This document shows positions 390-25,439 of a stretch of DNA of 32,000 nucleotides, piece after piece. The first letter of the stretch is position 1. Each line of letters opens with the position of its first letter. Location: the NCBI RefSeq assembly GCF_900199515.1, contig NZ_LT963434.1, positions 54,057 through 86,056 on the forward strand, given 5' to 3'. The stretch comes from Massilicoli timonensis. GTDB taxonomy: Bacteria; Bacillota_I; Bacilli_A; Erysipelotrichales; Erysipelotrichaceae. The translations under genes were made by a program, and so were the position numbers. The notes under the pieces are model-generated. The model did no database searches and was not told the origin of the DNA. It saw only the letters and a program-made list of their open reading frames with translations.

Positions 390-417
390 TTGACAAATAA
401 AAGAAACAGGTTATACT
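390..417 (+). promoter_or_regulatory. sigmaA-type promoter for the tyrS leader
   Basis: TTGACA at 390-395, a 16-nt spacer, then TATACT at 412-417. Confidence 0.6.
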
Positions 418-3337: not shown

Positions 3338-4202
3338 ACGCTGCATGGTTGCGCTGATTACCCCGTTTCATGCGGATGGCTCGATCGATTACATGAGCAT
3401 GGCAAGACTGATCAGACGTTTACTAAAAGAAGGATGCGATGGCTTCATCGTATGCGGCACTACGGCTGAAACACCGACGCTGCGCAAGGAAGAACGCAGG
3501 CAGATCCTGCGCTTTGTCATCTCCCAGGTAAAGGGGAAAGCAGCAATCTATTATGGCTGCGGCAGCAATGACACATTAGCGACGATTGCGGCATGCAAGG
3601 AAGTCGAAAAGGAAGCGATCGACGGCGTGTTATTAGTAACCCCTTATTATAATAAACCATCGCAGGAAGGCCTATATCGTCATTTCAGTGCGATCGCACA
3701 GGCAACTACACTGCCGATCATGCTTTATCAGGTACCGGCACGCTGCGGCGTCGCAATGGAAGCGGAAACGATCATTCGTCTGGCGCACGATCATGAAACT
3801 ATCAAGGCGCTTAAGTTTGCCAGCAGTGATTTCGCTTTGATCAGGAAAGTCAAAGAAAACTGTGATCTTACGATTTACAGCGGAGAGGATGAAATGCTGC
3901 TGGAAGGGTTAGAGGAAGGCATGCAGGGCATCATCTCAGTCAGTGCCCATCTGATCCTGCCACAGATCAAAAAGCTGATGGAACAGTATGAGCAAAGCTG
4001 TATCGATCCGCTTCTGCATTTACAGATCAAGGCTTATGCACGGCATTTGTTTATGGAAAGCAGTCCGGCGCCGTTAAAATACCTGTTATCCAAGCGGGAA
4101 GAATGTGAGAATGTGCTGCGGCTGCCCTTAGTCGGCGTATCGGCGCAAACCCAAAAAACATTAGATGCTTTCTTTGCTTCGACAACATTCTTTTTTGACT
4201 AA
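3330..4202 (+). CDS. dapA: 4-hydroxy-tetrahydrodipicolinate synthase
   Basis: DapA signatures are present: ALITPF, CGTTAE, TPYYNKPSQEGLYRHF, LYQVPARCG and a catalytic-Lys context ALKFASSD. ATG 3330 lies 8 nt after AGGAAG; GTG 3321 is an alternative start. Confidence 0.9.
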   Translation: MTKRCMVALITPFHADGSIDYMSMARLIRRLLKEGCDGFIVCGTTAETPTLRKEERRQILRFVISQVKGKAAIYYGCGSNDTLATIAACKEVEKEAIDGVLLVTPYYNKPSQEGLYRHFSAIAQATTLPIMLYQVPARCGVAMEAETIIRLAHDHETIKALKFASSDFALIRKVKENCDLTIYSGEDEMLLEGLEEGMQGIISVSAHLILPQIKKLMEQYEQSCIDPLLHLQIKAYARHLFMESSPAPLKYLLSKREECENVLRLPLVGVSAQTQKTLDAFFASTTFFFD

Positions 4203-5710: not shown

Positions 5711-8468
5711 CAATGAAAAAAGACAAGAAACTGTTAAGCCTGTTGCTCTGCTGTGTGATGTGCCTGACGGTTATCCCCGTGTCGGTATTTGCACAGGCGA
5801 TACAGCCCAAAGGCATTACCTCATTCACCGGGCAGGATTTGGTGAACGAGGGACTGATCGAGGACATCAACTTTGCCAACGCGATTGCAGAATCCATTAT
5901 GGCAGATACGGATAATTTTTACGGGGACTACTACGGCGATACCAGTAAAACCATTGAAAGCTACGATACGTTGGAAGATGTATTGCAAAACTTCACCGGC
6001 GTTATTGACGCAAGGGATAGAGGAATTACATCGCTGGTAGGGTTCCCCAACCTGCGCCATGCGCTGGAAGTGCATGTGGAGAACAACGAGATTAACGACC
6101 TCACACCTATCGCAGTGGAAGAACAAAATTATTATGGCGATGTAAGAAAAAGATTTGAGTACAGAAATACAGAGGTATATATCGCCGGGAATCCGGCAAC
6201 GAAGTTTCCTGAAAATTTCGGAGGCGCTTTGGATTTTCCCGATTTTTCCGATGCAGGGTTTATTTCCGAAGTATACACCTTTATCTCAACCGGGGAGACC
6301 CCCCGATTTTAACGCAAATATTGATGCGAGCATCCAAATTGGCGACGGTTATGCCACAATAAATGAAGCACCCCTTAGTTTATATTTTGAAGACGGTCAA
6401 TTTGTGACGACAAATTTTGACCTTTATGAAAACCTGTCGAAAACCAATGCTGAGATTGATCGTACCCAAATCAATACAGACCATTTATATATTTTGAATC
6501 ATATCAAATCGACCGGTTTCGGTTTTGGAGGGTTTTCGCAAGTTAATGCGAGCACTGGCGGCGTACTACAAGTCAACTGGCAAAAAGCAATAATAAGCAA
6601 TGTAACGCCTAATAGCAAATCAAGGGAATGGCTGCTCCCCATTGCCACCCAAATCATAAGCAAGGTGGAAAAAGGGACGCTGCAATCGGATTTTAGCATT
6701 GATTTCACCAAGACCAGCGCGAAAACGAATCAAGTCCTGCCGGGCGCGACATACGGCCTGTACCGGGACGGAACAGACGAGCTGATCGGCAGCTATACCA
6801 CCGACGACGACGGAGCCTTTTCCATTCCCAACGACAAGCTGCAAGGCGAAAAATTTTACCTGAAAGAGATTACCGCGCCGGTGGGACACCAGCTAAATCC
6901 TGAAAAAATCCCACTGACGTTGAAAAACGGCTCGATTGCACTCGCTTCTAAAACAGGCAGCAAGGTGACGGAAAATACTGGAAGCACCACGCAAGAACAT
7001 GATTTAGGCGACAACGGCGTGTTTGCCATTGGCGGGGGTATGCTCACTATGCCCGACCCGAATAACCCCGGACAAAGTATAACCGTAGACCCGGCTGGGC
7101 TGGATTTACAAATTATCCTGCCGGAAGTCAACGGGCAAAAGGGTACATTAAAATCCTTGACCGTCACCCGTACCAAAGGCAACAATACCACGATTACGGA
7201 ACAGGGGATGGAGGAAACTTTCACAGGTTCCGTAGAAGAAGTAGAAGAAGCGGCGTTGGAATTTATCAACAAGGCGGTCAAAGGCGGTCACGGAATACGC
7301 TCATGTGGAGGTTTCCGCTGAATTTGAAATGGACGCCACGGCAACACAGAGCGACAAGGTTTCCAGTTCTTTTGAGATTACAAAGGAAACAGTTGGCGGT
7401 GCAAAGGAAGATAAGGACAAGGAATTTTCTTTCACGGTAACGCTTGAAAAAGACGGGCAGCCCTATACCGGCGACTATACCATTGACGGCGAAGCCGGAA
7501 CGGATAAGGACGGTAGCTTTGAGGTATCGCTGAAAGGCGGCGAAAGCGTTATCATCGGCAGTCTGGACGAGGGCACCGAGTACACAGTGACCGAAAACAA
7601 AATCGAGGGCTGGCAGGCCGAACAGGAAAGCATTTCCGGCGTTACCCAAGCGGACAAGGTAACGGAGGGAAAAGCGGAACCGGCGACCAGCGCGGACTTT
7701 GTGAATATCAAAATCCCAGAGCTGTCCTACACAATGGACAAAAACCGTCTCACTCTGGCGAAGTTAAAGCCCGGAACAACAGACCAGTATGGTTTAGAAA
7801 AAGGCGATACGGTAGAGTATGCCATAACCATTAAGAACACCGGCGACTGTGAGCTTACGATGGACGTAACGGATAAATTCACTGACGCGGACAAATTTAC
7901 TGATTTGAAAGTAACCAAAGTAGAGGGTGCAACAAGGAACAGCGACCTTACCGATAAGGTAGGCGTAAACATCACCGTCAAAGTCGGAGAAACTGCGACG
8001 ATTACCTTTAGTGCTGTAGTAGCAACGGACATTGAAATCTTGTCCAATGCTGCCACAGACGATGGCAAAGGGTATGAAAACATTGCCGAAGCGTCCAACG
8101 TCAAGGGGATCTATAAACAAGGGAATGACAAAACCATTGTCTATTCCCCCGATCCAAAGGACGGCGAAACACAGTACCCGGACAACCCGGACGGCACAAA
8201 TCCGTTAGATCCGCAGGAGGATAGGGCAACCACACCAGTTTACAAAGCGGACGAGGAACAACCACCGGTAGATCCGGAAGAACCGACCGACCCGGAACCC
8301 AGCGACCCTGAAAATCCGAGTGAGTCGGGCAATTCGGACGTACCCCAAACTGGTGATAAAAGCAATCCAGCTTTGTACTTTGCTCTCATGGGTGCAGGAA
8401 TGATTGGCCTTATCGCAAGCCTTTTCCTCAATAGGAAACAGAAAAAGTACGCAAAACACAGACGGTAA
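5707..8468 (+). pseudogene. large cell-wall-anchored adhesin split into three ORFs by two frame disruptions
   Basis: The three ORFs are 5707-6312, 6155-7321 and 7305-8468. Domain order runs: signal peptide (MTMKKDKKLLSLLLCCVMCLTVIPVSVFAQA), internalin-like LRR N-region, SpaA/SdrD-B-like domain (LPGATYGLYRDG...FYLKEITAPVGHQL), pilin-isopeptide-like domain (EFSFTVTLEKDGQPYTGDY...YTVTENKIEGW), DUF11-like repeat (GDTVEYAITIKNTGDCEL), Pro-rich stalk, then VPQTGD + TM + basic tail. Frames are rejoined by a -1 nt change at the G4/C6 run (6292-6304) and by removing one copy of the 10-bp duplication at 7271-7290. Confidence 0.75.
7271..7290 (+). repeat. exact 10-bp tandem duplication (AAGGCGGTCA x2) causing a +1 frameshift in the adhesin
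   Basis: Read directly. Deleting one copy gives ...INKAVTEYAHVEVSAEFEMDAT..., which joins ORF 6155-7321 to ORF 7305-8468. Confidence 0.95.
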
Positions 8469-8969: not shown

Positions 8970-10751
8970 ATGATGAAAGTAAAAAAACAAATTTTGGCGA
9001 TCGTGCTAGGAGTAGGTATGGTACTATGCTTGCTTCCGGGCATAGTATTGGCACAGGGACCAACAGGTGGCACGTCGCACATCGCGGATAAAAGCGTGCT
9101 TGCAATCAATGCAGCAACAAACGATGCGGCGATGGTGTATTTCGGAAGTGAGGGCGATCCAATTAAATGGCGTGTCGTTGAAGCAGGAGATGGTCAGCTT
9201 ACTCTGTTATCGTTAGATATCCAGGGGATGACTGAGTTTGGACCAACGAATACCAATGCCTATAAGGACAGCTATTTGCATCAGGCGATCACAGCAATAG
9301 CCGATGCTAAATTAAGCGCAGCAGAAAAGACTGCCGTTGTCAAAAGAGATTTAACGGTGAGTGAGTTTAACAAGTATGATACAGACGGAATAGCAGGAGA
9401 ACCGGTGGATGACCAGTTGTTATGGCCGTTATCAACGAAAGAGGTGATGAGCATGAACACCGCTGTCGGTGGTTCAATTTTACAGGCGAGCTTCGATTGG
9501 TGGACTCGCTCCCCCGGTAATCCCATGTTTGGTAATGCTCTTGCCGGCGCTGTCTCCGGTGCGGGTGTTGTTGATGAAAATGGTCGATTAGTCGCCGACA
9601 TCAATGTACTTGGAGTACGTCCTGCTTTCTATTTGAATCTGAATCAAGTCTTGTTTGCATCAGCTGCAGATAACGGAAAGTCAGATGTATTGGCAGGAAA
9701 CAATCCGATTTTCGAAAACGAGTCAGCCAACGATACCAACGAATGGAAATTAACCGTTTTAGATGATGCACACGCAAACTTCAAAGCAGAGTATCAAAGT
9801 ACGGATGGCAATACGGTTAAGATATCTTATGAGAATGCCAATACTACCGATACCAACGGTTATATCTCCGTGATTGTGCAAGATAACACGACCAAGGAAT
9901 ATACGCATTATGTAAAGTTAGAGAAAGTAACCGGAGAAAATGGAACAGTCAGAGTCGATCTGACTGGTGTGGATATGAGTAATAAAACTTTGTATGTGTT
10001 CAATGAACAATGCAACGATGCAAAGAAAACCGATTATGCCAGTCCGCTTCAACCAATTGATTTATCAAATCAAAAAGCAACAAATGATTGGAACTCTGAA
10101 CTGACAATCGATGGCTGGACGTATGGAGAATATGACGCTATAGAAAATGCGCCGAAGATTGAATCCCAATATGGAGAGCCTACCTATTGGTACAGTGATA
10201 GCGAAGATGGTCCATGGACAACAACCGTGCCTACGGAAGCGGGAACATATTATGTGAAAGCAACGGTGGAAGCCACCGATGAGTATGAGGGATTGGAAAG
10301 TGATCCGGTTTCCTTTGTCATTAAACAGGCAAACGGTCAAGTGACAATCATCGAAGATTTGGATAAGTTATATGATGGAGAAGCGGTAAAAGATCCGCAG
10401 GTGGACACACACGGAAGCACAGGTAAAGTTACTTTTACGTGGGAAGTGGAGCAAGACGGTACATGGAAAGTTTTAGATGGTGCGCCGACAAATCCAGGAC
10501 ACTATCGCGTAACGGCAACATTGGCACCGGATCGCAATTACACCCAAGCTACCGCAAGCAAGACGTTTACGATTACTGAGAAAACGACGAAGCCAAACGA
10601 ACCAAGTAGTGGCGAGGATGGAAACAAAGAGGAATTTTCCATCATAGAGACAGGAGCAAACAGCCATTTGATGATGTGGGGAATCCTGATGCTTGTGTCA
10701 CTGGCGGTAATGAGCATCGCAATGACAAAGCAGAGAAAATACAATAAATAA
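8970..10751 (+). CDS. secreted surface protein with DUF6273-like N-domain, MBG-like repeats and a C-terminal sorting signal
   Basis: A signal peptide ends in VLAQG. WWTRSPG and VRPAFYLN motifs are typical of DUF6273. GTYYVKATV and PGHYRVTATL strands look MBG-like. The C-terminus is IIETGA + TM + KQRKYNK. Confidence 0.8.
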   Translation: MMKVKKQILAIVLGVGMVLCLLPGIVLAQGPTGGTSHIADKSVLAINAATNDAAMVYFGSEGDPIKWRVVEAGDGQLTLLSLDIQGMTEFGPTNTNAYKDSYLHQAITAIADAKLSAAEKTAVVKRDLTVSEFNKYDTDGIAGEPVDDQLLWPLSTKEVMSMNTAVGGSILQASFDWWTRSPGNPMFGNALAGAVSGAGVVDENGRLVADINVLGVRPAFYLNLNQVLFASAADNGKSDVLAGNNPIFENESANDTNEWKLTVLDDAHANFKAEYQSTDGNTVKISYENANTTDTNGYISVIVQDNTTKEYTHYVKLEKVTGENGTVRVDLTGVDMSNKTLYVFNEQCNDAKKTDYASPLQPIDLSNQKATNDWNSELTIDGWTYGEYDAIENAPKIESQYGEPTYWYSDSEDGPWTTTVPTEAGTYYVKATVEATDEYEGLESDPVSFVIKQANGQVTIIEDLDKLYDGEAVKDPQVDTHGSTGKVTFTWEVEQDGTWKVLDGAPTNPGHYRVTATLAPDRNYTQATASKTFTITEKTTKPNEPSSGEDGNKEEFSIIETGANSHLMMWGILMLVSLAVMSIAMTKQRKYNK

Positions 10752-16006: not shown

Positions 16007-16642
16007 GTGAAGTGGAACGTAAATAACAAGATGATGAACAATATCAACAAAAACAGACAGAATAAAGATCTGGAAGAAGATGCAGCAGCATTGCGCACGG
16101 AAGAAAAATTGGATGAAATGCTTGCAAATGATATTCCTGTAAATGATAGCGATGAGCTGATGGCCGCAATCAATCGCTATGAGGAAGGAAGCAATTTAGA
16201 AACGCCTGCAGAAAGAGAAGTGTCGGTGATTGAAGCCAAGACGACGGTTTACGGCAATATTGAATGTGAGGGCGATCTGCATGTCAAAGGCGTGATCAAC
16301 GGTGATTTAGCGGTAAGCGGAAAAGTGATGTCCGGCGGTAAAACAAACGGTACGATCGAAGCGGAGAGCGTTGTGCTGCACGATGCCAAGCATGAGGGCG
16401 ATATCCGCTGTGCAAAAGAAATCACGCTGGGAAGTGAAGTATCCGTCGTAGTCGGCAATATTACGGCGCAGTCGGTCAATCTTTTAGGTAAAGTAAAAGG
16501 GAATGTGAGCGTGAATGAACGCTGTCATATCGGCGCACAGGCTGTGGTGATCGGCGATATCTGCGCGAAAGTGATCGAAGTCGAAGCCGGTGCCGTCATC
16601 AAAGGTCATCTGGATATTACGCAGGACGCGGCTGTTGAATAA
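16007..16642 (+). CDS. bactofilin-family polymer-forming protein with acidic N-terminal extension
   Basis: The C-terminal two-thirds shows a beta-helical repeat pattern (V.G.I..EGDLHVKGVINGDL.VSGKV...G.I.A.SV.L.G.V.G.V......I...A.V.G.I). GTG 16007 lies 8 nt after AGGAG. Confidence 0.75.
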   Translation: MKWNVNNKMMNNINKNRQNKDLEEDAAALRTEEKLDEMLANDIPVNDSDELMAAINRYEEGSNLETPAEREVSVIEAKTTVYGNIECEGDLHVKGVINGDLAVSGKVMSGGKTNGTIEAESVVLHDAKHEGDIRCAKEITLGSEVSVVVGNITAQSVNLLGKVKGNVSVNERCHIGAQAVVIGDICAKVIEVEAGAVIKGHLDITQDAAVE

Positions 16643-16648
16643 AGGGGA

Positions 16649-17062
16649 ATGGATAGTATGATGAATGAAACTGCAAACAATAAAACGATCATCGCCCGCA
16701 AGTGCAAGATCGTAGGTGAGATCAGCGCCAATGATGATTTATTGGTATATGGAGAAGTAAAAGGCAATGTGAATTGCGTAAACGATATGGTGGTAGGCGG
16801 CAGCGTCGAGGGCGATGTCGAGGCCAGAGAATTGCGGGTCCATGGAAAGGCGGAGAACAATGGGAAAGCCGGGGCGATCTATGGACAGGTGGCAGTGGCA
16901 AACTGTATCGTAAACGGCAAGATCGAAGGAGATTGTCATATTGAGGGCGATATGATCGTCGGCAGTACGGCTGATCTGATCGGTGAGATCAACGCCGGCA
17001 GCATTGAAATTCAAAAAGGCGCCGCTTTGAAAGGCAGTCTGAATATCAATAATCAAGGATGA
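16649..17062 (+). CDS. bactofilin-family protein (second paralog)
   Basis: A compact DUF583/bactofilin pattern: IVGEISANDDLLVYGEVKGNV.....VVGGSVEGDV.A.ELRV.G...G.I.G......G.I.GD.....I.I..GA.LKG.L. Confidence 0.8.
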   Translation: MDSMMNETANNKTIIARKCKIVGEISANDDLLVYGEVKGNVNCVNDMVVGGSVEGDVEARELRVHGKAENNGKAGAIYGQVAVANCIVNGKIEGDCHIEGDMIVGSTADLIGEINAGSIEIQKGAALKGSLNINNQG

Positions 17063-19171: not shown

Positions 19172-19871
19172 CGAGCTGCTTGCACGCATCAAAACGGGTG
19201 ATGAAAGCGCCTTGGTACAGTTTGTGGAACAAAATAAGCCGTTGGTCGTTTCCATTGTCAAACGCTTTTCCCGCAGCGGTATTGATGAGGATCTGCTTTC
19301 GATCGGCATGGTCGGTCTGATGAAAGCGATCCATCATTTTAATGCGGACTATCAGGTACGTTTTTCTACATATGCGGTGCCGATCATCATGGGCGAGATC
19401 AAACGCTTTTTTCGCGATGACGGCAATATGCGCATTTCACGCAGCTTAAAAGAAGGCTATGTGGCAATGACAAAGGTCAAGGAAGAGCTGATTCAGCAGC
19501 ATGGAAGGGCAGTCAGCTATCAGGAGATTGCCGATGCGATGCATTTAGAGGTAGGAGATGTGATCTTAGCGTTTGAAGCGAATCAGTTTGTGTATTCATT
19601 GGATGAACCGGTCTATGAAAAAGACGGCAGCACGATTCATCTTTCTGATCGTGTGAGCAGTGCAGAACGCGATGTCGCACTGCATGTCGCTTTATGTGAT
19701 GAAATCAAACGGTTAAGTGAAAAAGAACAGCAGCTGCTGTATTATCGCTATACATTGTCGATGAAGCAGGAAGATACGGCAAAACGCTTACAGATCTCGC
19801 AGGTGCAAGTATCAAGACTGGAAAAGAAGATCATCGAAAAGCTGCGCATGGCATTATTAGAGCAGGCATAA
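19149..19871 (+). CDS. sigF: RNA polymerase sporulation sigma factor F
   Basis: Sigma70 region 2 reads LVVSIVKRFSRSGIDEDLLSIGMVGLMKAIHHFNADYQVRFSTYAVPIIMGEIKRFFRD. Region 4 contains the HTH QEDTAKRLQISQVQVSRLEKK. It is third in the spoIIA operon. Confidence 0.92.
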   Translation: MASKISNDELLARIKTGDESALVQFVEQNKPLVVSIVKRFSRSGIDEDLLSIGMVGLMKAIHHFNADYQVRFSTYAVPIIMGEIKRFFRDDGNMRISRSLKEGYVAMTKVKEELIQQHGRAVSYQEIADAMHLEVGDVILAFEANQFVYSLDEPVYEKDGSTIHLSDRVSSAERDVALHVALCDEIKRLSEKEQQLLYYRYTLSMKQEDTAKRLQISQVQVSRLEKKIIEKLRMALLEQA

Positions 19872-19873
19872 AG

Positions 19874-19903
19874 ATACCCGAAGAAAGCATCGGGTATTTT
19901 TTC
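19874..19903 (+). terminator. intrinsic terminator after sigF
   Basis: ATACCCG (19874-19880) pairs with CGGGTAT (19891-19897), followed by T6. Confidence 0.8.
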
Positions 19904-19982
19904 GTGAACAGGGATATAGCAAAGCGCTTTCAAGGACGAACAGCAGATTTGTCAAAATATGTAAAATATCGGTTTCGCACTA

Positions 19983-20015
19983 TTGACAAAAACGCTGGGG
20001 GGGGGGGGGTACAAT
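19983..20015 (+). promoter_or_regulatory. sigmaA-type promoter whose spacer contains a G13 tract
   Basis: TTGACA at 19983-19988 and TACAAT at 20010-20015 are separated by 21 nt, 13 of which are G. Confidence 0.5.
19997..20009 (+). repeat. homopolymeric G13 tract
   Basis: Counted directly (4 G + 9 G across the 20000 boundary). Confidence 0.98.
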
Positions 20016-20089
20016 ATTTACAGTATAAAGCTATCTGATTGTCTTATAAACAAAGAGAATCGGGGCTTCACATACGAGGAGGAAGATAT

Positions 20090-21808
20090 ATGAAACGAAA
20101 AAATGTAGTATTTACTACACTGACGTCGTTTGCACTTGCGGCTGCTATGTTTTCCAGCACAGTACCGGTTCATGCAGACGGCGCATTGAGCCAAACTGCT
20201 TTTATGGAACAACTGAAACAAAGCAATTATCAGTTTGATGAAGCAGTGGTGGTGGAAGTAACCAGTATGCTGGAGCTTAATCAAAAAGCCAGCATCAGCA
20301 ATGTTACCTTTGTTGATAAGGGGATCCAAAATGCACATGTCGTGTGGATCAACGGCGAGGTAACCTTGAACAATGTAACCATTCAGGCAGAGGAAACAAG
20401 CAAAAGTGGGTTATATGTCGGAGCAGGTGCAGATCTGAGCGTAAATGATCTGACGATCTCACATAACAGTGCAAAAGGCGCGCCGATCATTGCCAATCGA
20501 AATGCCAAAGCGGACTTTAACGGCAAACTGGATCTGACACTTAGTGAAGGATCATGGTATGGAATCAATGTGGATAGCGGGGCAAAAGTTGATTTAAGCG
20601 ATGCAGATCTTGTTGTCAAGACACATGACAATAACAAAACACAGTCAGCTCTCTGTATTGATGACAGCGATGCGAATACGGTGGTCATGCCGAAAGACAG
20701 CACCCTTTCCACAGTAGCGACGGAAGATGGTCAGCTGGCATATGTGAATGCGGATGATCTCGGCGATTTCATCATGGCAAAAAAAGACAAAGATGTAACC
20801 GAAGTGGTATTAAATTCTGATATTACTTTGACATCGCCGCTGTATTTGCAGGAAGGCATGACGATCAAAGGAAATGGTCATGCATTCAAAGGCAGCGAAG
20901 CCCTTGGCAAGGAAAATGTGGTTACAGCCATGGCAAAAGATGAAGTAGTTGTTTTAGATGATGTGCAAATCGTAACAACAGAATTTAACAAGAGCGGTCT
21001 GCATGTTTACGGCGGAAACGTAACGGCAAATGATCTTGTGATCGACAATACGAAAACAGCAGGCGGCGCCGCAGTGGTATTAAACGGCGGTACGCTGGAA
21101 ACAAGCAACGCGACCTTCCTGTTAGGAGACAATTCATGGGGCGCAGTCAATGTGGATAACCGCAGCGGTGTAGAGCCGAAGTTAACGATTGCCGATTCAG
21201 TGAAAGTAGAAGCACCGGAAGGAAAATCAACCAGTCTGTTCTATGTAGATGAAGATAAGGCTGATGCGATCGATCTGAATGATACGGTGGATATCAAAGC
21301 TGATACGACGATGACGGTAAACGGCGATACATTCACGCTGGGTGAAGACGGTGAGATCATTCCTCATATCATGATTACGATTGCCGCTGTCGTAGATGGC
21401 AAAGTAGTAGACCTGAGTGATGTCGTGGATCCAAGCGAGCTGTCCGTAGAAGCGTTAAAAGGCTATGTATTCAGCGAAGCGGATCTGGAAGAACTGTCAG
21501 CGATCGCGAAAGATCTTGATTTTGAAGGCCATGTATTCCAAGGATTCTTCTTAGATCAGGAAGGAACCAAAGCATTAAAGGCAAATGAAGCGATCAATGA
21601 AGATACGACCATTTACATGATTTGGAACAAAAAAGCGACGATTACACCGGTCGATCCGACAACACCGCAGGATAAGCCACAGACACCGAATACAACACCG
21701 TCTGCACCGAATACCGGTGATACGACGACTGCAGGTGCCTATGCGTTATTGGCACTGTTGAGCTTAGGATTAGCAGGCACGATCGCTTTGAAGAAAAAAC
21801 TGAACTGA
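20090..21808 (+). CDS. secreted parallel-beta-helix-like surface protein with Flg_new-type repeat and C-terminal sorting signal
   Basis: The start is moved to ATG 20090 (MKRKNVVFTTLTSFALAAAMFSSTVPVHADG) after GAGGAGG. Periodic V.LNNVTI / LSVNDLTI / VTANDLVI segments are present. FEGHVFQGFFLDQEGTKALKANEAINEDTTIYMIW resembles the Listeria-Bacteroides repeat. The C-terminus is a Pro/Thr stalk followed by APNTGD + TM + KKKLN. Confidence 0.8.
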   Translation: MKRKNVVFTTLTSFALAAAMFSSTVPVHADGALSQTAFMEQLKQSNYQFDEAVVVEVTSMLELNQKASISNVTFVDKGIQNAHVVWINGEVTLNNVTIQAEETSKSGLYVGAGADLSVNDLTISHNSAKGAPIIANRNAKADFNGKLDLTLSEGSWYGINVDSGAKVDLSDADLVVKTHDNNKTQSALCIDDSDANTVVMPKDSTLSTVATEDGQLAYVNADDLGDFIMAKKDKDVTEVVLNSDITLTSPLYLQEGMTIKGNGHAFKGSEALGKENVVTAMAKDEVVVLDDVQIVTTEFNKSGLHVYGGNVTANDLVIDNTKTAGGAAVVLNGGTLETSNATFLLGDNSWGAVNVDNRSGVEPKLTIADSVKVEAPEGKSTSLFYVDEDKADAIDLNDTVDIKADTTMTVNGDTFTLGEDGEIIPHIMITIAAVVDGKVVDLSDVVDPSELSVEALKGYVFSEADLEELSAIAKDLDFEGHVFQGFFLDQEGTKALKANEAINEDTTIYMIWNKKATITPVDPTTPQDKPQTPNTTPSAPNTGDTTTAGAYALLALLSLGLAGTIALKKKLN

Positions 21809-21833
21809 TTTTCTTCACTAACAGATACATAGG

Positions 21834-21860
21834 AAGCAGGGAAATCCCTGCTTTTCTTTT
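21834..21860 (+). terminator. intrinsic terminator
   Basis: AAGCAGGG (21834-21841) pairs with CCCTGCTT (21846-21853), followed by TTCTTTT. Confidence 0.8.
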
Positions 21861-21887
21861 GCTTTTTACAATGGTATTTGGTATAAT
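21859..21887 (+). promoter_or_regulatory. extended -10 promoter candidate
   Basis: TGgTATAAT at 21879-21887 with a weak -35 TTGCTT at 21859-21864 (17-nt spacer). Confidence 0.45.
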
Positions 21888-23601: not shown

Positions 23602-23655
23602 GTAAGCAAGCAAAGATAGCGTCTGTAAAAAAAACAGACGAAAGGAGGAAAATAG

Positions 23656-25439
23656 ATGAAAAAGAAAGTATCGTTGCTTTTGGCAAGTCTATGCCTGATG
23701 TTGGGCATGGCAGTAAAACCGAACATGATTTTTGCCCAGGGGGGGGGGGTACTGTAAATCAGTACTCTGAAACTGAGGCAGGTGGCCTAACGCTAAGTGA
23801 TTGGGATTATACAGAAACAAGTGATAAGATCACATTAACGAAGTACAAAGGGAATGCCGTAAATGTTGTCATTCCATCAGAGTTTGAAGAAAGACCAGGT
23901 GTATCAGTAGAGGTTGCAACTTTTGATGGAATGTTTGATAATCTTAAAAAAGAGAATTCATCAGGAAATCCAAAATACTATAATGAATTAGTATCCTTGA
24001 AAGTAGGAACAACGGATCAGAAAGTAACACTGGGGATAGATTCGATTAACAGTGTATTTTATGAAGCAAATTACTGGTTTACTGAGTTAGAAACAGTAGA
24101 TTTGAGTGGACTAGATACGAGTAATGTTACTAATATGTGTGGGATGTTTTTAGGATGTGAAAACCTAAAAAACATCAAGGGATTAGAGACATTAGATACA
24201 AGCAAGGTAACAAATATGAGTGGGATGTTTTTCAGGTGCAAATCTTTAGAACATATAGATGTTAGTAATTTTGATACAAAAAATGTAACAACTATGAGTA
24301 ACATGTTTCAAGACTGTACCAGTTTAGAAAGTTTGGATCTTAGTAATTTCAATACTTATAAACTTGAATATATGTTTATAATGTTTGGTGGCTGCACAAA
24401 TTTGAAAAGCATTAAATTTTCAGATACATTTGATACTAGTAATATTGTTGATATGGGATCTGTGTTTCAAGGGTGTAATCATTTAGAAAGACTAGATCTT
24501 AGTAATTTTGATACAAGCAAAGTAACAACAATGAATTGGATGTTTTTCGGTTGCAGTAGTTTAGAGACGTTGGATTTAAGCAACTTCAATACAGAAAAAG
24601 TTGCAGATATGAGTTATATGTTTGCTGGTTGTACCAATCTGAATCATGTAAAAGGATTAGAAACTCTTGATACAAGTTCTTGCAAAAGGTTTTCGGGCAT
24701 GTTTCAGAATTGTGGGAAATTCAATATTATTGATTTAAGTAATTGGAATTCTAATGAAAACTGTTATATCAATGGTATGTTTTATTACAATGAATCAGAA
24801 ATTGAACTTATACCGTTAGATGACCCGATTCCATTAATGATCATAACAGAAGATAAAAGAATTATTGATAATATTGATCCAGAGGATAAGTGGATGACTT
24901 ATTATAATAGAACCCCATACTATGCAAAAGTTGTATATCATGGAAATGACGGTACTTTTAATAATGGGAATACAGAAAGTGAAGCGATCGTATATCAAGC
25001 AGATCATTTCATCTACTCCACAATGGCAGAAGCAAAACAAGATTTTACCTTAACCGGTACAACCATATTAACCAATAACCCATCTGCTAGCCTAAGCAAA
25101 GAGGGATTCATATTCAATGGCTGGTATTTAGATGAAGCGTGTACGATGCCATTAGCGGAAACCGATCTGATCGATTTTATGACATTAGAAAATGGTACGT
25201 TACAGTTATATGCAGGATATAAAGAAGAAACACCGAAAGAGCCGGAAATCCCAGAGAAAAAACCGACAAAACCGGAAGAGAATAAGGGAGAAAGCAGTAT
25301 AGAGGAGATCAAGAAAGAGGAGAATGAAACAGTACATACAGGAGATGAAGTAAGCAAGGGAATGTACTATGTACTGCTAGGGGGAAGTGTGATCGTATTC
25401 GCTGCAATGTTACGCAAGAACAGAAGCAGCGAACAGTAG
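23656..25439 (+). CDS. DUF285/BspA-like leucine-rich-repeat surface protein, frameshifted (phase-OFF) at a G11 tract
   Basis: AAAGGAGG is followed by ATG 23656, which encodes the signal peptide MKKKVSLLLASLCLMLGMAVKPNMIFAQ and then GGG. That frame stops at 23755-23757. The 582-aa body (track ORF 23691-25439) lies in the frame reached by adding 1 G. The body has about 9 repeats of the LD(L)SNFDTS.VT.M..MF.GC..L type, then a Flg_new-like GFIFNGWYLDEACT...LQLYAGY segment, then TVHTGD + TM + RKNRSSEQ. Confidence 0.8.
23739..23749 (+). repeat. homopolymeric G11 tract inside the 5' coding region
   Basis: Counted directly (2 G + 9 G). Confidence 0.98.
24081..24792 (+). repeat. coding tandem array of about 25-aa DUF285-type LRR units
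   Basis: The periodicity is visible in translation: ...LDTSNVTNMCGMFLGCENLKNI / LDTSKVTNMSGMFFRCKSLEHI / FDTKNVTTMSNMFQDCTSLESL ... Confidence 0.7.

Follow-up and report, generated by a model that had tools for sequence, protein, structure and literature searches.

A length-variable poly-G tract in a predicted promoter spacer as a candidate expression switch of a surface-protein gene in Massilicoli timonensis

We analysed a 32,000-nucleotide (nt) stretch of DNA of Massilicoli timonensis (Erysipelotrichaceae), a human-gut isolate; this whole stretch is called the window below, and all coordinates are window positions unless a locus is named. Between the −35 and −10 boxes of the predicted promoter of a single-gene unit encoding an LPXTG-type surface protein lies a run of 13 G. 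Quite probably, as far as sequence comparison can tell, this tract is a slipped-strand switch, of the on/off or the volume type, that acts through the length of the promoter spacer of the putative adhesin gene. The main evidence is the polymorphism of the tract on identical flanks, the invariance of the promoter core in an otherwise diverged region, and the presence of the same promoter module upstream of homologous genes in other genera.

Structure of the promoter

The −35 box, TTGACA, is a perfect match to the consensus, and the −10 box, TACAAT, coincides with it in five of six positions, so that the pair matches in 11 positions out of 12. The 21-nt spacer consists of the non-repeat part AAAACGCT followed by G13, which directly abuts the −10 box. 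The standard promoter scan admits only spacers of 16–18 nt and hence skips this pair. A rescan with spacers of 15–22 nt yielded it as the sole pair with at least nine matches in the interval from the sigF terminator to the start codon; the whole window, both strands considered, contains only three such pairs. Thus direct reading and the rescan agree with the original prediction on the two hexamers held 21 nt apart by 13 G, on the spacers of 17 and 18 nt that G9 and G10 would produce, and on the lack of another convincing promoter in this interval.

The extended −10 motif TGn is absent from the window promoter and from the homologous promoters inspected, hence the −35 box, and with it the spacing, should matter for recognition. 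Ahead of the −35 box, the A/T-rich block AAATATGTAAAA is possibly an UP-like element; A/T-rich stretches are also found upstream of the −35 box in the homologous promoters.

Another of the three strong pairs, TTGACA-16-TATACT, may serve as an internal control. It ends 7 nt before a T-box leader (positions 424–622, Rfam RF00230, 135.8 bits), which lies upstream of the tyrosine-tRNA ligase gene (638–1894), and thus the organism uses this consensus. By analogy with this promoter, transcription of the surface-protein gene is predicted to start 6–8 nt past TACAAT, and the TTGACA/TACAAT pair is presumably an active promoter.

The G tract itself is far beyond chance. Apart from it and a G11 run described below, G runs in the window do not exceed seven. 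A first-order Markov model yields an expectation of 2.3e-4 runs of at least 13 G and 4e-3 runs of at least 11 G per window, and a run of 13 was reached in none of 200 simulations. A role of a G-quadruplex was set aside, as a single G run cannot form one alone.

Tract length in public assemblies

Exact-protein look-ups in public assemblies, made with SigF, the surface protein, the lipoprotein and MgsA, gave, in addition to the window, 28 independent samples in which the gene order is the same; most of them are human-gut metagenomes. The tract is not invariant across strains: among these 29 assemblies it is G10 in five, G11 in 12, G12 in seven, G13 in four (the window included) and G14 in one. 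All five lengths occur in a set of 16 loci that show no substitution in 1880 nt of flanking sequence, 80 nt of it upstream and 1800 nt downstream, while a second group of five identical loci has tracts of 10, 11, 12 and 13. Hence the tract changes orders of magnitude faster than its flanks gain substitutions. In the compared flanks, the runs A7 and T7 stay unchanged. Exact-pattern scans of Joint Genome Institute (JGI) metagenome contigs, one with the promoter core plus G7 and the other with the sigF terminator, produced no matches.

Conservation of the promoter core

The intergenic and 5′ untranslated region (UTR) from the terminator to the start codon, about 200 nt, exists in two haplotypes (window positions 19904–20100 compared with positions 6756–6950 of locus L001) that are only about 65% identical outside the promoter core. 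Yet window-type and L001-type strains do not differ at all over about 4.4 kb upstream, and inside the gene their identity is 99–100%. This suggests either local import by recombination or an unusually high local divergence.

Within this diverged stretch, ACTATTGACAAAAACGCT-Gn-TACAATA is invariant: 25 of 25 non-G positions coincide (p about 2e-5 per placement). Since the core is invariant where its surroundings have diverged, the promoter elements are likely to be under constraint. Next in length among the blocks shared by the haplotypes come the ribosome-binding site and the A/T-rich 12-mer that precedes the −35 box. The tract length varies inside each haplotype.

A stem-loop predicted at the 5′ end of the mRNA is predicted in haplotype B as well, with a compensatory change from C-G to U-A, and the Massilimicrobiota UTR likewise opens with a hairpin. 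This fits a transcript that would start just past TACAAT. The Rfam search of the 5′ UTR found no known RNA element, the single match being at chance level (E about 1) and covering the sigF terminator; a riboswitch was therefore dropped from consideration.

The transcription unit and its product

The surface-protein gene follows a cluster of, in this order, a dacF-like carboxypeptidase gene, spoIIAA, spoIIAB and sigF. The hairpin that terminates the cluster is identical in both intergenic haplotypes, and none of 200 shuffled sequences folds as well. The gene has a terminator of its own, and the next gene downstream has its own promoter, TTGCTT-17-TGgTATAAT. Hence the gene is transcribed as a unit of one and requires a promoter of its own.

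The product, WP_102266460.1, is annotated by NCBI as an LPXTG cell wall anchor domain-containing protein. It comprises a signal peptide, a beta-helix-like passenger, a Pro/Thr-rich stalk and a sorting signal. The LPXTG_anchor model TIGR01167 matches residues 540–570 with 18.2 bits (curated cut-off 15.9). The C-terminus has the architecture of a sortase substrate, with the motif PNTGD, rather than canonical LPXTG, followed by the hydrophobic segment AGAYALLALLSLGLAGTIAL and KKKLN. The original prediction of a secreted protein with a sorting signal is borne out by the signal peptide and the above-threshold TIGR01167 match.

The same prediction called the protein a beta-helix one, and this seems plausible at the level of the fold class but does not extend to a family. 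The match to Pfam PF20585 (Pectate_lyase_5, a pectate-lyase-like adhesive domain) scores 22.5 bits, below the cut-off of 24.3 (E = 1.4e-4), and the protein was not assigned to this family. The AlphaFold model, built with 20 homologues, has a predicted local distance difference test (pLDDT) score of 76 overall and above 85 for residues 50–370. Its matches in PDB are almost all right-handed beta-helices or beta-solenoids (GH55, AlgE, PL6, AlgG, tailspikes, Ag43, SRRP), those at the top being right-handed beta-helices throughout, but they are weak, with the best E = 9e-4 and template-modelling (TM) scores of at most 0.31. Hence, judging from the model, the label is reasonable only as a fold class; the passenger seems to resemble adhesins and glycan-binding proteins.

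The promoter module in other genera

Homologues of the surface protein with 35–45% identity were found in Massilimicrobiota timonensis, in Massilimicrobiota sp. An105 and in a third lineage. They reside in other genomic contexts, with unrelated neighbouring genes, and are not adjacent to sigF. Their promoters are listed in Table 1. The −35 box TTGACA is unchanged in the 29 M. timonensis assemblies and in all seven homologous promoters of the two other lineages. The non-repeat part of the spacer is 9 nt in the latter and has a different sequence.

Table 1. Promoters upstream of homologous surface-protein genes
Locus	Promoter	Spacer	Remark
L045	TTGACA-aaaatacgc-G10-TACTAT	19 nt	
L048, L049	TTGACA-aaaatacac-G9-TACTAT	18 nt	
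L051	TTGACA-aaatcacac-G10-TACTAT	19 nt	
L052	TTGACA-aaatcacac-G9-TACTAT	18 nt	sister sample of L051, same protein
L046	TTGACA-atgtgcata-G10-TAATAT	19 nt	
L053	TTGACA-atgtgcata-G9-TAATAT	18 nt	
L050	TTGACA-aaatcatac-GTGAGAGGG-TACTAT	18 nt	repeat interrupted

The sequence following the −10 box, TAC[A/T]ATATTTA[C/T]AGTA, is common to Massilicoli and Massilimicrobiota, thus the promoters are homologous rather than convergent. The contig search with the surface protein produced only distant Oscillospiraceae matches (27–32% identity), none of them with G tracts.

These data bear on the alternative that the tract is a mere mutational hotspot, hypervariable but with no effect on expression, the gene being read from sigF read-through or from an unrecognised promoter. 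We consider it unlikely, although it would account for the fact that the commonest lengths produce spacers of 19–20 nt, poor for a promoter in use, and for the homologue that has no tract (L047). A neutral homopolymer would decay, whereas in three lineages the tract holds its exact place, abutting TAnnAT 17–19 nt past a perfect TTGACA, and where it has decayed, in L050, the spacing has stayed at 18 nt. That the tract is retained in place, and that a spacing of 18 nt is fixed once the repeat is gone, agrees with the prediction of a functional spacer switch and not with that of a neutral hotspot. The strong terminator between sigF and the gene speaks against read-through, and the invariance of the hexamers inside the diverged region also disagrees with neutrality.

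Two observations on individual loci may be added. In L047, a G10 run (3447–3456) is situated 3′ of the gene, in the intergenic region beside the end of a convergent NAD synthase gene. In the Massilimicrobiota loci L048 (601–2643) and L049 (222–2264), where the tract is G9, an upstream open reading frame extends across the promoter and joins the adhesin gene in frame. The called products of 671–680 aa instead of 618–620 aa are an annotation artefact depending on the tract length.

The second poly-G tract

The window contains just one further long G run, G11, which lies in a coding sequence, directly past the signal-peptide cleavage site MKKKVSLLLASLCLMLGMAVKPNMIFA/Q of a gene encoding a PARCEL/DUF285 BspA-like leucine-rich repeat (LRR) protein. 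The signal-peptide frame translates to MKKKVSLLLASLCLMLGMAVKPNMIFAQGGGVL* and hits a stop two codons past the tract. The gene body, which matches Pfam DUF285 (4e-53) and the PARCEL repeat TIGR02167 (7e-62), is in another frame; G9 or G12 would restore a 594/595-aa protein with the signal peptide. The gene is predicted to be off in the window because of the G11 frameshift. By its sequence, this tract is an instance of classical translational phase variation, in which the homopolymer length moves the downstream frame relative to the start codon.

In 21 assemblies the tract is G8 (three cases), G10 (13), G11 (three), G13 (one) and G3AG8 (one, L020). The last is 12 nt long and in frame; the remaining 20 are out of frame, so that none of the 21 has a pure in-frame tract. 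Among the allele-cluster representatives with the same N-terminus, 13 of 14 begin in one of the two off frames, while one allele cluster, P0115, which has 30 member sequences, keeps the signal-peptide frame. The probability of observing at most one in-frame tract among 21 is about 2e-3 if the samples are independent and about 0.07 if distinct states are counted, and ancestry is shared; hence selection for the off state is only suggestive. The search with the N-terminal 120 aa of the reconstructed "on" protein retrieved three off-frame fragments only, and the exact look-up of the window's 354-aa protein returned no record. Gene callers assign false N-termini to the gene (MPDVGH..., MPRGGGT...).

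Contigs end at or inside the coding-region tract, and assemblies often break there. In 82 of 194 collection blocks containing the surface-protein gene, the longest contig is 2–5 kb, matching the 3.7 kb between the two tracts. These breaks and contig-length classes are consistent with heterogeneity within samples, but they are no proof of it.

The second tract helps to assess whether the differing lengths could be artefacts of sequencing or assembly, the true tract being fixed. Illumina chemistry and de Bruijn assemblers do perform poorly at runs of at least 10 G, and many contigs end at the tracts. However, five lengths of the promoter tract, and lengths from 8 to 13 of the coding one, come from differing studies and assemblers, the A7 and T7 runs are stable, and the tract is also present in a 2.09-Mb isolate contig. 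Moreover, the lengths of the coding tract avoid multiples of three, in the assemblies and in the allele representatives alike, which sequencing error would not do; this argues that the differences are biological. Hence we regard the artefact explanation as very improbable.

Beyond the tract, the 5′ end of the PARCEL/DUF285 gene (the signal peptide, the G tract and the first approximately 50 codons) is conserved between strains. The body (23800–25400, compared with L007 and others) has nucleotide identity of 29–87% where aligned, and the alleles encode 474–959 aa. The pattern resembles antigenic diversification by cassettes, with a constant switch in front of them. Directly 5′ of the ribosome-binding site of this gene there is a hairpin, CGTCTGT-A8-ACAGACG (23620–23640, −9.2 kcal/mol, z = −5.2), whose A-run loop varies from A7 to A9 among assemblies and is interrupted in another haplotype (AAAAGAAAA).

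Proposed mechanism

In the model that we favour, slipped-strand mispairing at replication would add or remove G residues in the spacer of a sigma-A-type promoter. As the spacer comprises 8 + n nt, a change in n would alter both the distance between TTGACA and TACAAT and their rotational phasing. For sigma-70/sigma-A promoters, and judging also by the poly-G precedents tp0126 and porA (PMC7864442), spacers of 19 nt should be weak and those of 20–22 nt largely inactive. The promoter would then be recognised efficiently with G9–G10 (17–18 nt), less so with G11 (19 nt), and be largely silent with G12–G14 (20–22 nt). A clonal population would always hold a few cells in the other expression state of the surface protein, while the PARCEL/DUF285 gene would be switched independently, by frameshift past its signal peptide. 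We infer the on/off assignment of the lengths, the slippage mechanism, its reversibility and the selective agent.

The 18-nt spacer is likely to be a working state, because it is fixed in L050, is one of two states in the other homologous promoters, and is what G10 gives in five of the M. timonensis samples. The window, with its 21-nt spacer, is probably in a low or off state. Most populations appear to be in weak or off states as well. Since no assembly has G9 and the second tract is mostly off, the subpopulation that dominates in the gut seems as a rule to express neither adhesin.

Several points weigh against the spacer switch. The tract length G9, which would yield a 17-nt spacer, is observed in none of the 29 assemblies, and the mode is G11 (19 nt); instead of most populations being weak or off, the promoter may tolerate longer spacers than assumed. 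Consensus lengths in Illumina assemblies can be wrong by one base at runs of at least 10 G. The lengths vary between samples, which is not equivalent to switching inside a clone. The hexamers are consensus matches, and the promoter is a predicted one. Finally, the homologue in L047 has no G tract upstream. On the other side, the original interpretation of the tract as a spacer-length switch is supported by comparative evidence, that is, by the length polymorphism, the invariant core, the cross-genus module, the lack of a visible rival promoter, the terminators on either side of the gene and the surface location predicted for the product.

The least likely alternative, which we consider highly improbable, is that the G run is a recognition element, either a regulator site or the GG of a sporulation-sigma −10 box, and its length matters only indirectly: while GGGTACAATA fits the Bacillus subtilis sigma-F/G type −10 consensus GGnnAnAHTR and the gene is directly downstream of sigF in M. 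timonensis, TTGACA is a sigma-A-type −35 box with no sigma-F-type one at the required distance, TACTAT and TAATAT of the other lineages break the pattern in genes that are not beside sigF, and the product is a sorted surface protein of the vegetative type. A sigma-F/G-type promoter was rejected on these grounds. The conservation of the module across genera, the fixed 18-nt variant and the frame-dependent lengths of the coding tract speak against all three alternatives.

Comparison with known systems

By analogy, the Massilicoli locus seems to be a device of the same kind as porA of Neisseria meningitidis, tp0126 and the tpr promoters of Treponema pallidum, and the repeat-spaced promoters of mycoplasmas. 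It shares the sequence-level features of a switch of the porA/tp0126/vlp type: a repeat between the predicted −35 and −10 boxes, a tract length that varies while the flanks do not, and a surface product.

The poly-A tract of vlp in Mycoplasma hyorhinis and the TA repeats in Mycoplasma mycoides/capricolum are situated in −35/−10 spacers and switch surface-protein genes, and the Mollicutes are among the closest relatives of the Erysipelotrichia. The PARCEL/DUF285 family of the neighbouring Massilicoli gene is shared with mycoplasmas. However, the mycoplasma repeats are A or TA, not G, and the switched proteins are lipoproteins, not sortase substrates.

In tp0126 and porA, a poly-G tract between the −35 and −10 boxes sets transcription, with an optimum at 17 nt (PMC7864442). 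As here, the G homopolymer of tp0126 (encoding an OmpW homologue) and of the tpr promoters is in the spacer of a surface-protein gene. The tp0126 tract varies in vivo, and transcription is best at the 17-nt spacing and is lost with longer tracts (PMC7864442). T. pallidum, however, is a spirochaete pathogen, its proteins are those of the outer membrane, and the evidence includes reporter and fragment-length data, whereas the evidence in Massilicoli is comparative. The Massilicoli tracts are also longer (10–14), with spacers of 18–22 nt.

In porA and opc, the homopolymer length sets the promoter strength stepwise, acting as a "volume control" of a surface antigen, and the porA tract is between the −10 and −35 boxes (PMC7864442). 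The porA spacer homopolymer thus resembles the one described here, although N. meningitidis is a Gram-negative pathogen and porA expression falls as the tract shortens below the optimum, whereas most natural Massilicoli lengths are above it. Unlike the Massilicoli spacer tract, the poly-C tract of opc overlaps the −35 box, and a regulator presumably mediates its effect.

In the contingency loci of Campylobacter and Helicobacter, off states are often dominant. These loci are reported to contain poly-G/C tracts of 8–13 nt, both intragenic and intergenic, at genes for surface structures (PMC8355987, PMC2823697). They resemble Massilicoli in having G/C homopolymers at surface genes of a gut-dwelling organism. 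Unlike it, they belong to Epsilonproteobacteria and have mostly intragenic tracts, while Massilicoli, a spore-forming Gram-positive commensal, has a spacer tract and an intragenic one 3.7 kb apart. In Streptococcus pyogenes, a 1-nt indel in an intergenic homopolymer is reported to alter the transcript level of an LPXTG surface protein at the Spy1336/R28 locus (PMC7098570). It is similar to our case as a Gram-positive bacterium with an intergenic homopolymer at an LPXTG surface-protein gene.

Implications

Phase variation of gut commensals is known mainly from invertible promoters, as in Bacteroides and Clostridioides difficile, and homopolymer switches mostly from pathogens (Neisseria, Haemophilus, Campylobacter, Helicobacter, Treponema, mycoplasmas). 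The full-text literature search brought up no work on phase variation in Massilicoli; for the Erysipelotrichaceae, it gave no report of phase variation driven by repeats. If the spacer-switch reading is correct, a spore-forming Erysipelotrichaceae commensal varies two adjacent adhesins by two poly-G tracts, one transcriptional and the other translational, and the promoter version has been kept across genera. The interest of the case would lie in the host, in the cross-genus module and in the intragenic switch nearby. Public metagenome assemblies would already hold the length states, mostly off. The practical consequence is that gene callers mis-annotate both genes depending on the tract length and that assemblies break at the tracts.

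A broader reading may be offered only tentatively, as we are inclined to doubt it more than to accept it. The poly-G promoter might be an ancient selected module, inherited with the adhesin family across Erysipelotrichaceae and forming part of a wider repertoire of poly-G contingency loci among gut commensals that form spores. In the human gut, the off states would then prevail, for instance under the pressure of immunoglobulin A (IgA) or phages, and on variants would be a minority. If so, phase variation by simple sequence repeats (SSRs) would join invertible promoters as a major route of surface variation in gut Firmicutes.

Features of the window

The positions of the features are collected in Table 2.

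Table 2. Features of the promoter, the two genes and the control promoter
Feature	Position	Strand	Remarks
Near-perfect promoter TTGACA-16-TATACT	390–417		precedes the T-box leader
Intrinsic terminator of the dacF-spoIIAA-spoIIAB-sigF cluster	19870–19903	+	hairpin −15.7 kcal/mol, z = −5.0, then a U run
A/T-rich block upstream of −35	19955–19966	+	12-nt exact match between the haplotypes
−35 hexamer TTGACA	19983–19988	+	direct reading
Spacer, both parts	19989–20009	+	21 nt
Non-repeat part of the spacer	19989–19996	+	same in both haplotypes
Poly-G tract, G13	19997–20009	+	direct reading
−10 hexamer TACAAT	20010–20015	+	direct reading; TACAATA block invariant
Predicted transcription start	20021–20023	+	by analogy with the T-box promoter
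Predicted 5′-UTR stem-loop	20023–20075	+	−16 kcal/mol, z = −3.0
Ribosome-binding site GAGGAGG	20076–20082	+	direct reading; block AGGAGGAAGA kept between the haplotypes
Surface-protein gene	20090–21808	+	572 aa; ATG at 20090; monocistronic
Surface-protein gene terminator	21832–21865	+	10-bp stem, then a T-rich tail
Signal-peptide reading frame, PARCEL/DUF285 gene	23656–23757	+	stop two codons past G11
PARCEL/DUF285 BspA-like LRR protein body	23691–25439	+	joined to the signal peptide with G9 or G12
G11 tract in the coding sequence	23739–23749	+	directly past the cleavage site

Two adjacent genes with bactofilin domains, at 16007–17062, immediately precede the dacF-spoIIAA-spoIIAB-sigF cluster. 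The region 8970–10751 encodes a third predicted surface protein. Its parts are a signal peptide, domains of the DUF6273 and MBG types, a C-terminal hydrophobic anchor and a charged tail, and its gene contains an A7 run in codons 4–6 (8981–8987).

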